Below, piece by piece: positions 15,909 through 20,605 of a DNA stretch of 64,000 bases. Where the stretch lies: positions 9,952-73,951 of IMG/VR virus record IMGVR_UViG_3300029466_000004. One strand, 5' to 3'. Each line of letters begins with the position of its first letter. Positions within the stretch are counted from its first letter, which is position 1. The notes under the pieces are model-generated. The model saw only the letters and a list, made by a program, of their open reading frames with translations. It ran no database searches and was not told where the DNA came from. This DNA is from a virus (lineage: Duplodnaviria > Heunggongvirae > Uroviricota > Caudoviricetes). The position numbers and the translations under genes are program-made.

Positions 15909-16148
15909 CTATTCATTAAAAATGTTTTCAACTGGTGCAAAAGAAATGCTTTCCATTCCAAACTTGCACACCGGGCAAATCCAAACGTAGCTTCCATCCA
16001 TGAATTTTCTGTCTATAAATTTTTCTTCTATCTTCATGTCTTTGCCTTTTACCCAAGCAATCGTTCCACAACATTGGCATCTAAAGCAAACCGCAAATTT
16101 TTCTTTTTCTCTGCAAGTAAGGCTTTCGAGTGAAGTTTTATCGTTCAT
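15909..16148 (-). CDS. small Cys-rich (zinc-ribbon-like) protein
   Basis: multiple CxxC pairs; last gene of the leftward operon. Confidence 0.4.
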   Translation of the reverse strand: MNDKTSLESLTCREKEKFAVCFRCQCCGTIAWVKGKDMKIEEKFIDRKFMDGSYVWICPVCKFGMESISFAPVENIFNE

Positions 16149-16161
16149 GTTCTTCCTCTCT

Positions 16162-16203
16162 CCCCTGTGCGGTCGTAGCGGCTACACAGGGGTTTTCTAT
16201 TTT
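16162..16203 (+). terminator. hairpin plus T-run (plus-strand orientation) inside the leftward operon
   Basis: cccctgtg...cacagggg followed by ttttctatttt. Confidence 0.35.
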
Positions 16204-16224
16204 AACTTTAGAACTTAGTTTTTA

Positions 16225-16413
16225 TCAATATTCTTCTCTCGTCGATTTTGGAAAAGCAATATTGCAAACTGCCTCTCTCCTTCGCTCATAGTAAGGGCAT
16301 TCTCCATCGCCTTTTGTTTCAGTGTTCACATTTGGATGAAAGGCATCCATACACTTGTTATGAACGCGGCTCCAATCTACACAAGTCTCACATGATTTTT
16401 CAGTACAAAACAT
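16225..16413 (-). CDS. small Cys-rich protein
   Basis: CxxC motifs; operon member. Confidence 0.35.
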   Translation of the reverse strand: MFCTEKSCETCVDWSRVHNKCMDAFHPNVNTETKGDGECPYYERRREAVCNIAFPKSTREEY

Positions 16414-16432
16414 TGCATATTCCTCCTAAATC

Positions 16433-16711
16433 TCAGCTTTTATCAAGCATTGCAGTCTTTTCATTCCAATATCCTGCGGCCTCTTCAGCGGAATTGAAAA
16501 ATAGACCGCCAAGAGCTTCTTCTTGGTCATCACAACGGAGAATGCAACTCATCCATTCTTCGTGATGCAAAGCATACAAGGCTATATCGCAGTCTGGGTC
16601 TTTCTCAAAATCGCATCCAAGTGGCCCTTTCCATTTTTCATCAATATCATACACGCTAATGGAAACCGCTTCATGCCCGCAAAATGGGCATTTATTCAAT
16701 TTAAGCATCAT
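16433..16711 (-). CDS. Lar-like restriction-alleviation family small protein
   Basis: N-terminal KCPFCGHEAV..., C-terminal ...AAGYWNEK... resembling Lar-family zinc-ribbon proteins. Confidence 0.4.
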   Translation of the reverse strand: MMLKLNKCPFCGHEAVSISVYDIDEKWKGPLGCDFEKDPDCDIALYALHHEEWMSCILRCDDQEEALGGLFFNSAEEAAGYWNEKTAMLDKS

Positions 16712-16739
16712 TCCATCTCCTAAATCTTAACTTTTATCG

Positions 16740-17886: not shown

Positions 17887-18653
17887 TTTGTATTCTCCTC
17901 CACAATCATCTTCGCCAACGCCTTAAAATCTTCTGCGCTGGTACTCTTTGCTGTGTCACCGCTAAACAGGCTGTGCCGCTCTGCCTGCGCCTTTCGAACG
18001 CCCATAGACGGCCTAATCTTCACGTTTAACAGCATTGTCCCCATGCTCTGTGCAATCACAGGAAGCTGCTCCACGACCTCTTTGGACAGGTTCTCACGGC
18101 TCTTGTACTGGTTCAGAAGCAGACCTTCAATCTTCAAAGTCGGGTTGAAGTATCTGCGAACATCGACAATGGTCTGCGAAAGCTGGCTCAAACCAGCCAG
18201 TGCGTAGCGGTCTGCTGTGATGGGAACGATGATGCTGTTGGCAGCGATCAGAGCGTTTACAAGTGCAAGACCAAGCTGCGGGGGAGTGTCCAGTACAATG
18301 TAATCATACTGCTCAGACACTCTTTCAAGGGCTTCTCGCAGCCGGAAGTTCTTTCCAATGTCCCGGACAAGCTGCTCGTCAATGTCCTTCAATGCGTTGT
18401 CTGACGGCAGAATGTCACCTGCTTCGCAGTGCTGGATTCCTTCCTCTACTGTACCCTGCCGGGTCATTACATCGAACAAAGTACACACGTCCTCTGTCTG
18501 CGCACCGTATGTGTCCGTTGCGTTGCACTGGGCATCGCAGTCCACCAGCAGCACCTTCTTTCCAAGCAACTGCAACGCACCAGCCAGACAGGTGCTTGTG
18601 GTAGTCTTTCCTGTTCCGCCCTTCTGGTTGGCGACAGCTATGATTTTTGCCAT
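17883..18653 (-). CDS. parA: ParA/Soj family partition ATPase
   Basis: MAKIIAVANQKGGTGKTTT deviant Walker A; full-length ParA-like. Confidence 0.8.
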   Translation of the reverse strand: MAKIIAVANQKGGTGKTTTSTCLAGALQLLGKKVLLVDCDAQCNATDTYGAQTEDVCTLFDVMTRQGTVEEGIQHCEAGDILPSDNALKDIDEQLVRDIGKNFRLREALERVSEQYDYIVLDTPPQLGLALVNALIAANSIIVPITADRYALAGLSQLSQTIVDVRRYFNPTLKIEGLLLNQYKSRENLSKEVVEQLPVIAQSMGTMLLNVKIRPSMGVRKAQAERHSLFSGDTAKSTSAEDFKALAKMIVEENTK

Positions 18654-18668
18654 TTTATCACTCTTTCT

Positions 18669-18929
18669 TTATTCTTTCGGTTCGTCAGGAAGTGGCATCC
18701 AATGGGTTACATGATATAACACATTATCATCAATCAGTTGGGTTTCACTATTGTTTCCATAGAACGCATCCGTCAACACATCATCTGTATACCATTTTTC
18801 GCCTTTGAAGTCACCATAATAACCGAAAGTAACGCCCATCACTTTATCATAAATGATAATCTGAACGTACTTGTCTGGCATCTTATCTTTTACGCTAATC
18901 CAACCCATTCTCGCTCCTTTCTGCATCAT
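18669..18929 (-). CDS. DUF551-family phage protein
   Basis: C-terminal ...VTHWMPLPDEPKE motif. Confidence 0.5.
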   Translation of the reverse strand: MMQKGARMGWISVKDKMPDKYVQIIIYDKVMGVTFGYYGDFKGEKWYTDDVLTDAFYGNNSETQLIDDNVLYHVTHWMPLPDEPKE

Positions 18930-18951
18930 CTGCTCAATGTGCTACATCTGA

Positions 18952-20073
18952 CTATTTCAAGAAGCTATCATCAAACGTAGCATAATCGTCAAGGTCTGCA
19001 TCTTTCAAAATTGAATACATATAAGCGCCGGGGTCTTTTTCAATCCTATCAAGTCGCTCGCTGACAAGAATCCTGTATGCATTCTCAATGATGTTCACAA
19101 CAGCTTCTTTTTTCTTGTTGGGCTTGATGTTCGGATACTTCTCCGGCAATCTCTTTGCCACCAGCTTTGCGGTCAAGATACACTGGCTTTTAGACATCTC
19201 CGGCGCAATAGATGCCCAATCAACATCCTCGTATGCGCCGCTGCGGGGCTTTCTGGCAGGTCGTTGGCTCTTTGGAACATCTTTTAGCTCTACGCTTTCA
19301 ACCTCGTTAGCTTCCACGTCTATGACTGGCTCATTAGACTTGAAAGCTACATTGAACTTTACAGCAACCGCATTGCGACCTCTCATAACCTTGTCATATT
19401 CAACGCACAGGTCTGATACTTCGTTTATTTCAGCTACCGCAATATCAATGACACGCCGCCTAAGATGCTTGAACTCTTGATAGCTAGGTTCTCTTGCACC
19501 AAGCTGTTCCCTTAATCTATCCAACGTAATTTCGGGCTGGCTCACGCCACGTCCGATGAACTCTCGGAGAATTGAATACAGCAAAATGCTATACTGCGAT
19601 TTCATATTCGCTGTGTAGCGCAAGCGATACTTGACATATCCACGCTCTGCAATGTCGAAGAAAACGGGTTGTAGAAGTGGGTTACAGCACAACGACACAG
19701 TAATGTTCATCAAACTAGGTTCAAAATTTACAGTTGCTCTGCTGAACAGGGGATACAGGTCAAACGAGCCTGAACCGTCACCTCTAGGAACTTCAACAGA
19801 GTTGTCGATGAAATGCTTAACCTGTGCTTTCAAATTCCTAGAGTTGATTTTTAACCCTAAAAATTCGCAATATTCTTGTAACGTAAACTGAACCGTTGAA
19901 GTTTCGGGGTCTCTCGGATTGATACGGCTAAGATACACTTCAAGCAGCCGAAGCTCTCCTGCTGTATAGTCAGTGAACTTTGCCCAAACAAGCTGTCTGC
20001 TTTTTTCAACCAAGTTCCCGCCTTTAATATCAGACAATCCTATCACGCCTCCTCTCGTATAAGAGTATATCAC
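18952..20073 (-). CDS. replication initiator protein (plasmid RepA/Rep_3-like, winged-helix)
   Basis: 373 aa; N-terminal wH-like region; immediately downstream of an iteron array and AT-rich region. Confidence 0.55.
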   Translation of the reverse strand: MIYSYTRGGVIGLSDIKGGNLVEKSRQLVWAKFTDYTAGELRLLEVYLSRINPRDPETSTVQFTLQEYCEFLGLKINSRNLKAQVKHFIDNSVEVPRGDGSGSFDLYPLFSRATVNFEPSLMNITVSLCCNPLLQPVFFDIAERGYVKYRLRYTANMKSQYSILLYSILREFIGRGVSQPEITLDRLREQLGAREPSYQEFKHLRRRVIDIAVAEINEVSDLCVEYDKVMRGRNAVAVKFNVAFKSNEPVIDVEANEVESVELKDVPKSQRPARKPRSGAYEDVDWASIAPEMSKSQCILTAKLVAKRLPEKYPNIKPNKKKEAVVNIIENAYRILVSERLDRIEKDPGAYMYSILKDADLDDYATFDDSFLK

Positions 20074-20080
20074 AAACAGG

Positions 20081-20193
20081 TGTACAAATCAATAGCGAGT
20101 GTACACCTGTTTCCACTTCTTGTACACCTAACTGTCCACATTTTGTACACCCGTTTCCACAATCTGTACACCTATATCCATTTTTTGTACACC
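20081..20193. repeat. iteron array: TGTACA(C/A)C x6 at ~21-22 bp spacing (origin of the Rep replicon)
   Basis: copies at 20081, 20100, 20121, 20144, 20165, 20186, followed by an AT-rich stretch; further gtgtacaaaaagtgga copies at ~20388 and ~20558. Confidence 0.6.
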
Positions 20194-20605
20194 TCTTTAC
20201 ATTATATAAAACAAGACTATTAACAGGATTATAAAATAACTTCTACTAATAGCAGAAGAAGAAAATTTTCCACAAAATCTTTTCTTTCTCTCTTAAAAAG
20301 TGGAAAACGCAAAGCGAATACTACTAAATAAACAGCTGTTCAACATCCAAAAGGTTGAAGCGTTTAACGGTTAGCTTTACCTAACGTGTACAAAAAGTGG
20401 ATGAAAAACTTTTAATTCAATGCTATGGGGGACAGATTGACAAGCCAACCAATCGCAGACAATAGATTGACGGTAATTCGTTATTTATTCCGCACGAATG
20501 TTGTCGATTTACAGTTCATGGGGGACGGATTGACAAGGTAAATTTGCCCGATAGGTGTACAAAAAGTGGACAAAATGTTCTTCAAAAACTGCGATAATTC
20601 GACAA

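Follow-up and report, generated by a model that had tools for sequence, protein, structure and literature searches.

How is a temperate-looking phage maintained in its host if it carries no integrase? This question is raised by a stretch of 64,000 nucleotides from a caudoviricete genome (IMG/VR record IMGVR_UViG_3300029466_000004, positions 9,952 to 73,951), which we analysed as a whole and refer to as the window. In it, a leftward operon at 15.9-20.1 kb encodes, in the order of transcription, a replication initiator (Rep), a DUF551 protein, the partition ATPase ParA, two small open reading frames (ORFs), a ribbon-helix-helix (RHH) protein and three further small ORFs. A preliminary description, made from the letters alone, had taken this region for a plasmid-type maintenance module at the head of a separate 'element B', and that element for a candidate phage-plasmid. 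We consider it likely that 15.9-20.6 kb is a lysogenic maintenance cassette and that the phage is a phage-plasmid, with a prophage of the plasmid type. The components on which the candidate was built, namely a plasmid replicon, a lytic module, a small serine recombinase and the lack of an integrase, held up in our analysis, whereas the division into elements and the view that such a phage would be unusual among Firmicutes did not.

We began with the identity of the initiator. The Rep ORF (18952-20073) matched both Pfam entries of the Rep_3 family (PF01051/PF21205), with E-values of 1.6e-21 for Rep3_N (77.6 bits against a cut-off of 22.4) and 6e-16 for Rep3_C (58.9 bits against a cut-off of 21.1), and residues 28-229 aligned to mini-F RepE (PDB 1rep; E 5e-8). 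Translation probably starts at the TTG at 20037, which sits 10 nt after GAGGAGG and gives the length of 361 amino acids (aa) that is called in hundreds of assemblies; the Rep-like initiator of the preliminary description is therefore a Rep_3 initiator, at 361 instead of 373 aa. Rep also matched the phage family phrog_4402 ('replication initiation protein', Rep_3-like; 3.9e-32). Its closest relatives outside the phage lineage are the initiators of mobilisable plasmids of 2-6 kb, among them a full-length homologue with 41% identity, the initiator P0041 of Rep_3+Mob_Pre plasmids, which is present in 780 collection blocks, with one copy on a 358-kb contig of a '[Clostridium] leptum' metagenome-assembled genome. 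With Rep as the query, tblastn found relatives in 2404 records of plasmids but in only 11 of phages. Of the 30 plasmid records listed, that of a 6.9-kb plasmid of Mediterraneibacter gnavus had the best E-value (35% identity, E 1e-35); the phage records included Burkholderia phage KS14 (34% identity over 31% of Rep), known as a plasmid prophage. We conclude that Rep is a plasmid Rep_3 initiator whose nearest outside relatives serve Rep_3+Mob_Pre plasmids; membership in a known phage replisome-organiser family, which had been raised as a possible objection to the phage-plasmid candidate, was not found.

The DNA upstream of rep has the architecture of an iteron-type origin (Table 1). Five direct copies of TGTACACC, at 20100, 20121, 20144, 20165 and 20186, are spaced by 21, 23, 21 and 21 bp, that is, in helical phase, and the complete iteron unit reads TCCAyNNNNTGTACAC. 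Inverted copies occur at 20079, 20386 and 20555. The window contains 11 copies of this core against 0.93 expected, and none of 100 shuffles reached 11; together with the adjoining stretch of 77% AT, this confirms the earlier call of five phased iterons and an AT-rich stretch upstream of rep. The candidate rep promoter is embedded in the palindrome AAACAGGTGTACA / TGTACACCTGTTT, with half-iterons at 20074-20086 and 20100-20112, and this palindrome would act as an autoregulatory operator. The -35 and -10 hexamers are kept in all Rep types described below, and the spacer between them contains an inverted half-iteron that is specific to each type. Within the AT-rich stretch, a terminator-like hairpin on the minus strand (20258-20240) would shield rep against transcription from upstream, and TTTTCCACA at 20266-20274 resembles a DnaA box, with one mismatch to the textbook consensus.

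Initiator and iterons vary together. Among 249 related loci there are six Rep types, each with its own iteron core and with spacings that are multiples of ~21-22 bp: AGGTGTACA (n=139), ACGTGTACA (38), ATGGGGGAC (31), GGTATACC...AAATCTGCA (26), AACGAGGAC (10) and AAAAAACCG (5). In genomes that were found via the neighbouring cargo gene, and were thus chosen independently of Rep, the identity of Rep to that of the window was 44-100% (median 52%), and that of ParA (75 relatives) was 86-98% (median 96%). A hypervariable Rep-iteron pair on a constant backbone is what would be expected from selection to escape plasmid incompatibility. Genomes of differing Rep type also share one gut sample (L119 and L162 in ERZ1034882; L136 and L175 in ERZ1035027). 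The contigs in these two samples are fragmented, at 16-33 kb; strain mixtures fit as a cause of assembly breaks and of chimeric contigs longer than one unit.

Beyond the AT-rich stretch lies a conserved distal block with two kinds of element. The A elements (TCCACTTTTTGTACAC, at 20386-20401 and 20555-20570) are inverted iterons of type 1/2, and the B elements (ATGGGGGACrGATTGACAAG, at 20425-20444 and 20518-20537) are inverted iterons of type 3. Almost every genome of Rep types 1-5 has two copies of each (~245 related loci), whatever the resident Rep type, and in types 4 and 5 additional inverted cognate iterons are inserted within the block. Handcuffing or copy control, a centromere and interference between types are possible roles. 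The block is followed by a gene for a 197-aa helix-turn-helix (HTH) regulator, which we found at this position in every inspected relative.

The full ParA ATPase reported for this operon was confirmed by its match to Pfam AAA_31 (1e-53; residues 2-175), with the deviant Walker A motif KGGTGKT at residues 11-17. ParA also matched phrog_164 ('ParA-like partition protein'; 1.7e-58), and its nearest solved structures are ParA/Soj proteins (PDB 8ray, 3.6e-41, and 1wcv). The candidate for its centromere-binding partner is the RHH protein, the gene for which is kept downstream of parA in all relatives examined. The RHH protein of the preliminary description corresponds to a protein with an RHH-like C terminus; the extent of the gene had to be revised to 16740-17312 (190 aa). 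The homologues are 190 aa long in 119 of the 120 best clusters listed, out of 819 found, and the RHH segment is invariant across 14 aligned sequences. A NikA-like Pfam match (E 2.2e-5) scored 25.0 bits, below the cut-off of 27, and a sequence search of the PDB gave no match. The AlphaFold model is disordered to residue 140 and has an extended segment and two helices at 142-178 (predicted local distance difference test 68-83), in which DSSP gives no strand in the monomer model; the top Foldseek matches of the model were nearly all RHH proteins (Arc, CopG, NikA, KacA and AtaR), at E>1. The N-terminal part contains an invariant motif, GLLGGFDFQP, which may loosely resemble the ParA-activating N-terminal peptide of chromosomal ParB/Spo0J. 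The C-terminal (RHH) half, at 40-62% identity, also ends longer ORFs in relatives (L097, L074 and others); at L097, the one locus checked, the longer ORF is a Bro-N domain protein.

Genome unit, recombinases and the integrase position

We compared the window with itself and found that its two ends are homologous: 1-8023 corresponds to 55979-64000 at an offset of 55,977 bp and an identity of 68-88%, with 88% between 2-1730 and 55979-57707 and 68-73% in the tail genes that follow. Because the ends are homologous yet diverged, the window contains two diverged variants of a single phage type and extends over 1.14 genome lengths, the unit being 55,977 bp. The 'elements A and B' of the preliminary description are these two diverged copies, placed end to end. 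The window shows the full gene set of the phage type. One relative of 56,509 bp has a terminal overlap of 55 bp, which makes its assembly circular. The phage type is an uncultured, siphovirus-like phage from the human gut, probably of Bacillota, with a circular map of ~56 kb. Its complete phage functions comprise the large terminase (TerL), portal, capsid, Gp10_C-type tail proteins and repressor and antirepressor genes; the tape-measure-sized ORFs (1317 and 1365 aa) were assigned as such by position, and the GH25 lysin of relatives corresponds to ORF 10412-11212 of the window.

The maintenance module does not open an element either. Cargo genes at 13878-15860, for proteins of 290 and 123 aa and for a DUF7841 protein, are convergent with the par/rep operon, and cargo abuts this operon in each of the 71 relatives that were recovered via the DUF7841 gene and had enough flank. 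The same adjacency was seen in the other relatives that we inspected, from IMG/VR, ENA, Logan and JGI; tail, lysis and cargo genes lead directly to the par/rep operon in the relatives. We conclude that 15.9 kb is the convergence point of two operons within a circular genome and no element boundary.

How two diverged copies came to share one contig is a separate question. We lean, by a modest preference, towards an assembly chimera, in which two strain variants of the same circular genome, occurring together, were joined. Beyond the homology of the ends at an offset of one unit, this explanation is favoured by the match of the right 17.9 kb of the window, at 99.7% identity, to the unit-length scaffold L104 (59.6 kb), with other contigs as the best matches of the remaining parts. 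Rep types and variants co-occur in the samples ERZ1034882 and ERZ1035027, and contigs longer than one unit occur sporadically. On the other side, a real heterodimer could have been formed by recombination between two co-resident phage-plasmids. We sought the junction with database contigs of at least 98.5% identity and did not locate it, as the population is too mosaic.

A gene for chromosomal integration was sought in several ways. No integrase or large serine recombinase family matched among the scanned ORFs of the window (every ORF of at least 200 aa except antisense ORFs and the two tape-measure-sized ones, plus the larger remaining ORFs). A six-frame tblastn search of the window with the tyrosine integrase of phage Maintenon gave nothing better than E 0.18. 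No integrase was found in the 71 relatives recovered via the cargo gene, every one of which carries the Rep, ParA, RHH and HTH genes. The lack of an integrase, as first described, is thus confirmed by the ORF scans and the six-frame search, and none can hide beyond the window, because the window exceeds one full genome length.

The small serine recombinase first described at 45005-45586 is present; it is the sole recombinase of its kind that we saw and, unlike integrating serine recombinases, has no large C-terminal domain. Relatives encode a serine recombinase of 185-248 aa in the same place upstream of the terminase. Judging from its type and conservation, the 193-aa recombinase probably resolves multimers. 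A perfect palindrome (44569-44600; 15+15 with an AA centre, TACTCTAGTATGTAT AA ATACATACTAGAGTA) lies ~400 bp upstream of the recombinase gene, and a near-consensus promoter, TTGACA-17-TACAAT (44650-44678), precedes the 109-aa ORF and the recombinase. The palindrome is a candidate res site, but a conserved one it is not: of four relatives, three lack it and the fourth, L105, has only a related palindrome.

Comparison with the nearest cultured phage places the cassette in context. By TerL this is Clostridium phage Maintenon (ON453900; host [Clostridium] innocuum; 57,045 bp), at 52% aa identity. Maintenon has a similar size and the same order of repressor and cro genes, antirepressor, recombination genes, initiator plus DnaB, and PAPS reductase, which continues, as here, with terminase, portal, capsid, tape measure and tail. 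At its left end, Maintenon has a tyrosine integrase, a hypothetical gene and a LexA-like repressor, whereas our phage type has the RHH gene, parA, rep and the HTH gene; Maintenon has neither a Rep_3 initiator nor ParA. Relative to Maintenon, the Rep/Par cassette replaces the integrase positionally.

Physical state and mode of maintenance

The lineage is very common in human gut metagenomes. The exact 361-aa Rep turned up in 386 collection blocks, with 247 blocks for the exact capsid protein; a single cluster of RHH proteins comprises 3,621 sequences, and relatives of the DUF7841 cargo gene are encoded in 572 IMG/VR stretches. Contigs with Rep or its variants plateau at 50-61 kb (80 IMG/VR and 80 metagenome loci), with a single exception of 68.5 kb, and neither the exact Rep nor the exact capsid protein was on a contig of more than 200 kb. 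In ~280 related loci we saw no synteny break and no bacterial gene. Some contigs are among the longest of their assembly, with up to ~420x coverage; such long contigs at high coverage suggest virion-enriched samples, and hence packaging. The physical-state data argue against integration; a plasmid prophage and a free lytic genome are both compatible with them.

The genes and sites described above can be joined into a scheme for the maintenance of the phage as a plasmid. After infection, the genome would circularise, and the cI-like and HTH repressors would silence the rightward early operon. Rep would be made from its own promoter, and Rep monomers would bind the four to five iterons of 21-23 bp and open the adjacent AT-rich stretch, on which the host replisome could load for theta replication at low copy number. 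Binding of Rep to the inverted half-iterons across the promoter would repress its own synthesis, and the distal inverted iterons may limit copy number via handcuffing. The Soj-like ParA and the 190-aa RHH protein would segregate the copies, and the small serine recombinase would probably resolve multimers. On induction, via the Rha/KilAC antirepressors, the DUF6291 protein, DnaB, ERF, SSB and the Holliday-junction resolvase would take over; this lytic module possibly fires from the CGACTAT array, and the resulting concatemers would then be packaged.

Of the features by which phage-plasmids are defined (Pfeifer et al. 2021; PMC7969092), we found full phage functions, a plasmid initiator (Rep_3) with ParA, and no integration module. 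For extrachromosomal maintenance in a lysogen the evidence is indirect, namely the circular assembly of one relative and the lack of contigs of more than 200 kb with the exact Rep or capsid protein. For a Rep_3 replicon, we found the WH1 and WH2 domains, phased iterons and co-variation of Rep with its iterons, and an operator in the promoter that is predicted at the level of sequence.

Several observations weigh against a plasmid prophage. Searches for Rep relatives in 185,579 species-representative genomes, with a single sequence and with an alignment of 16 sequences, gave none, and a megablast search of PLSDB (72,556 plasmid records) with the 5.4-kb module gave no near-identity match; neither collection thus yielded a host or a lysogen. 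Circular contigs of unit length are equally expected from a purely lytic or an induced phage. A few related contigs exceed one unit, at 64-85 kb, with ends that are not seen; they may be of the same kind as the window, or may have host flanks. In the 85-kb contig a unique 36-mer occurs once, which is uninformative as to a concatemer or a host flank. The recombinase is annotated as a 'DNA invertase' in PHROGs (phrog_125, 3.4e-52), and we established no res site, nor did we find an inverted pair of sites flanking an invertible segment. The RHH assignment consists of a sub-threshold Pfam match and a low-confidence model. Upstream of parA we sought a repeat-array centromere and found none there; candidates elsewhere are the A/B block (20386-20570) and the CGACTAT array (38.2-39.3 kb).

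Part of this evidence would also suit a phage that forms no stable lysogen and lives in a virulent or carrier state, with Rep_3 and its iterons as a replication origin, or one of them, and with ParA and the RHH protein serving positioning or interference with the host. Only free genomes of unit length were seen, some at very high, virome-like coverage, the lysogen was absent from the isolate genomes searched, and PHROGs holds Rep_3-like families of 'replication initiation protein', such as phrog_4402. We nevertheless regard a virulent phage as unlikely. Against it stand a divergent cI/cro-like switch, two Rha/KilAC antirepressors and an additional conserved HTH regulator, and also the early operon, which has a second, complete module for replication and recombination. 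Rep and ParA are encoded in the leftward operon on the repressor side, exactly at the position of the integrase of Maintenon, and six Rep/iteron types on a constant backbone fit incompatibility and are unexpected for a lytic origin.

A more far-reaching combination of claims would make this lineage one of the most prevalent uncultured lineages of gut phage-plasmids (at least 570 IMG/VR stretches), with at least six incompatibility-like types over a ParA of ~96% identity, in which nearly every genome would keep the non-cognate A and B iterons as decoys or as determinants of cross-incompatibility against rival types, and the window would be a real cointegrate. Taken jointly, these claims seem to us unlikely, somewhat more so than a virulent lifestyle.

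Integration into the chromosome by an unrecognised route, through the 193-aa serine recombinase or a host recombinase, with the window as tandem prophages, is highly improbable. The window does look like tandem prophages, as it has two diverged copies end to end and exceeds one genome length, some related contigs (64-85 kb) have unseen ends, and the serine recombinase is conserved in the lineage. Against this, there is no host DNA anywhere in the 64 kb, and synteny is unbroken over the lysis-cargo-par-rep-repressor and recombinase-terminase regions in the ~280 loci. No contig of more than 200 kb carries the exact Rep or capsid protein (386 and 247 blocks), and the recombinase consists of a catalytic domain and an HTH only, with no tyrosine integrase beside it. 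Two further candidates were rejected: a prophage integrated in a plasmid, since the whole 56-kb unit apart from the cassette is phage, and a linear plasmid of the N15 type, since the assembly is circular and the scanned ORFs gave no protelomerase-like match. A phage-plasmid with a plasmid-type prophage is thus the reading that we retain as likely.

Neighbouring modules and cargo

Table 1 Features of the maintenance cassette and of associated modules in the window (positions are those of the window).
Feature	Position	Strand	Description
Three small ORFs, distal end of operon	15909-16711	minus	79, 62 and 92 aa; variable accessory slot
RHH protein	16740-17312	minus	190 aa; disordered Lys/Pro/Glu-rich N-terminal part, predicted C-terminal ribbon-helix-helix
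Two small ORFs in the parA-RHH gap	17309-17886	minus	70-aa zinc-ribbon and 122 aa; variable slot
ParA partition ATPase	17883-18653	minus	Soj-like, 256 aa; deviant Walker A; without N-terminal HTH domain
DUF551 protein between rep and parA	18669-18929	minus	Pfam DUF551 2.8e-13
Rep_3-family replication initiator	18952-20037	minus	361 aa; WH1 and WH2; ORF open to 20073
Candidate rep promoter	20064-20112	minus	-35 TTGATT 20092-20087; extended -10 TATACT 20069-20064
Iteron array	20100-20193	plus	Five TGTACACC cores, four as full 21-23 bp units TCCAyN4TGTACAC
AT-rich stretch, candidate unwinding element	20194-20300		77% AT versus 52% for the window
Conserved distal block	20386-20570		Two A and two B elements; conserved islands in diverged relatives
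HTH_3 regulator	20606-21199	minus	197 aa; Pfam HTH_3 7.7e-10; adjoins origin
Putative lysogeny switch	22156-23673		cI-like HTH, small ORF, Rha/KilAC antirepressor
Early-operon recombination genes	26054-28114	plus	ERF, SSB, Holliday-junction resolvase
Separate (lytic) replication module	35375-37377	plus	DUF6291 protein, then DnaB-type helicase
CGACTAT array	38202-39257	plus	13 motifs in one orientation, mostly in non-coding 635 bp (38619-39253)
Recombinase operon	44569-45586	plus	32-bp palindrome, promoter-like site, 109-aa ORF, recombinase
Small serine recombinase	45005-45586	plus	193 aa; PF00239 Resolvase 1.6e-35 (residues 2-138), with active-site serine; C-terminal HTH (166-190)

The putative lysogeny switch consists of a leftward HTH gene (22156-22548; HTH_26 1.7e-10), a rightward ORF (22662-22883) and the antirepressor (22897-23673; Phage_pRha, ANT), and Maintenon has the same switch layout. 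The Rha/KilAC genes at 22897-23673 (plus strand) and 42722-43534 (minus strand) are paralogues, 20 kb apart and in opposite orientation, and share an inverted repeat of 113 bp at 85% identity (23089-23201 and 43173-43285).

In the early operon, the recombination genes were identified by matches to the ERF annealase (3.6e-46), SSB (phrog_44, 1.7e-42) and a Holliday-junction resolvase (phrog_843, 6e-21), and the lytic replication module by matches to DUF6291 (2.3e-10) and DnaB_C (2.6e-50). DnaB is homologous to that of Maintenon (E 1e-25). The DUF6291 protein was tried as a homologue of the 'replication initiation protein' of Maintenon and dropped, as homology was undetectable and it is a positional analogue only. 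The early region also encodes a PAPS-reductase-domain protein (28948-29838) and an SPFH/Band-7 protein (31572-32435); Maintenon shares the PAPS reductase.

A second iteron cluster next to dnaB had been part of the preliminary description. Repeats do exist there: CGACTAT has 16 copies in the window, all on the plus strand and only three of them outside 38202-39257, the five right-hand sites of the array are spaced by 11, 23, 21 and 23 bp, and the array of the relative L089 has 11 copies. They lie 0.8-1.9 kb downstream of dnaB, and their status as iterons is unproven; the array could be a lytic origin or a distal centromere. C-rich degenerate repeats (CCCCCT-like, with a period of 9-12 bp) at 38400-38477 fall inside a 98-aa ORF (38322-38618) that has no family match.

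Two slots of the leftward operon vary among relatives. The parA-RHH gap holds ORFs of 50-139 aa with different content, and the distal slot, whose three small ORFs gave no solid match in family scans of the window, is occupied in relatives by a 293-aa AAA ATPase, a Bro-N protein or DUF551 proteins. The cargo block that follows the lysis genes (12851-15860) has a GC content of 56-59%, versus ~45% in the adjoining DNA. Its proteins are a Gly-rich protein of 290 aa that ends in CCGCC, a Cys-rich protein of 123 aa and the DUF7841 protein, which is 97-100% identical in the best 80 of the 572 IMG/VR matches and is more conserved than Rep. The block may hold genes for lysogenic conversion.

Elsewhere, an RtcB RNA ligase gene (46144-47358) lies between direct repeats of 239 bp (45883-46121 and 47363-47601; 83% identical) and is present in L104 and L105 and absent in L103 and L106; it looks like a cassette that is gained and lost by recombination between the repeats. 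A tRNA-Met (CAT) gene (49766-49842) separates the large terminase and portal genes.

Comparison with known systems

Individual parts of the cassette have counterparts in well-studied plasmids. Like mini-F RepE with ori2, and like other Rep_3 plasmids, it combines WH1 and WH2 domains, direct iterons of ~21-22 bp beside an AT-rich region and a half-iteron operator in the rep promoter; it differs in that the identity to RepE is ~20-25%, in a C-terminal extension of ~120 aa and in the position of the replicon inside a complete phage genome. The Rep_3+Mob_Pre plasmids of gut Clostridia (P0041 and the M. gnavus plasmid) have the closest Rep proteins, but they are 2-6 kb long, encode a relaxase and have neither phage genes nor ParA. 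Partition systems of type Ib (ParF-ParG of TP228 and delta-omega of pSM19035) likewise pair a small Walker ParA that lacks an N-terminal DNA-binding domain with a partner made of a flexible N-terminal part and a C-terminal RHH. ParG and omega are roughly 70-80 aa long. Membership of our pair in this class is only partial, because the partner has 190 aa, no repeat-array centromere lies upstream of parA and the ParA is nearest to chromosomal Soj.

Among phages, KS14 is similar in that a Rep_3-type initiator can be detected in it, as in few other cultured phages, and differs as a P2-like myovirus of Proteobacteria with a match that is very distant and partial. We found no close homology to the cultured phage-plasmid groups tested (P1, N15, SSU5, KS14 and others), either with Rep and TerL against 50,697 phage records, in which the matches of high identity were unannotated metagenomic fragments only, or by near-identity of DNA in PLSDB. 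Literature searches did not find a description of this lineage, which is no proof of absence.

A functional parallel is P1, a temperate phage that is kept as a low-copy plasmid by means of RepA with the incC and incA iterons, ParA-ParB-parS and Cre-lox. As in the textbook account of P1, our phage type has origin-proximal iterons with further iterons that may serve copy control, a Walker-type ParA, a recombinase and a separate lytic replicon. There is no sequence relationship, with RepA of P1 not closely related to Rep; P1 uses an HTH ParB with parS where our phage has an RHH protein, Cre is a tyrosine recombinase, and P1 is an enterobacterial myovirus of 94 kb. Here, a layout that parallels P1 is assembled from Firmicutes parts unrelated to those of P1: a Rep_3 initiator, a Soj-like ParA whose candidate partner is an RHH protein, and a recombinase of the serine type.

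Nor would a plasmid lifestyle be out of the ordinary for such a phage, as the preliminary description had supposed for a siphovirus-like phage with Firmicutes-like genes. Up to half of the phages or plasmids in Bacillus and Clostridia are phage-plasmids (PMC7969092), and among the viral operational taxonomic units of gut phages more than 6% cluster with phage-plasmids, mostly from Firmicutes and Actinobacteria (bioRxiv 10.1101/2025.02.07.636470); since phage-plasmids are frequent in Firmicutes, this lifestyle is not unusual there. Phage-plasmids are under-detected in gut viromes, because lifestyle predictors look for integrases. If our reading is right, it would correct calls of a 'virulent' or 'unknown' lifestyle for hundreds of database genomes, and six Rep/iteron types on one backbone would offer a tractable natural system in which to study the incompatibility-driven diversification of temperate phages. 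Plasmid-type lysogeny is a known lifestyle, and what sets this phage type apart from the known systems is not the module but the prevalence of its lineage and the diversification of Rep and iterons into six types.

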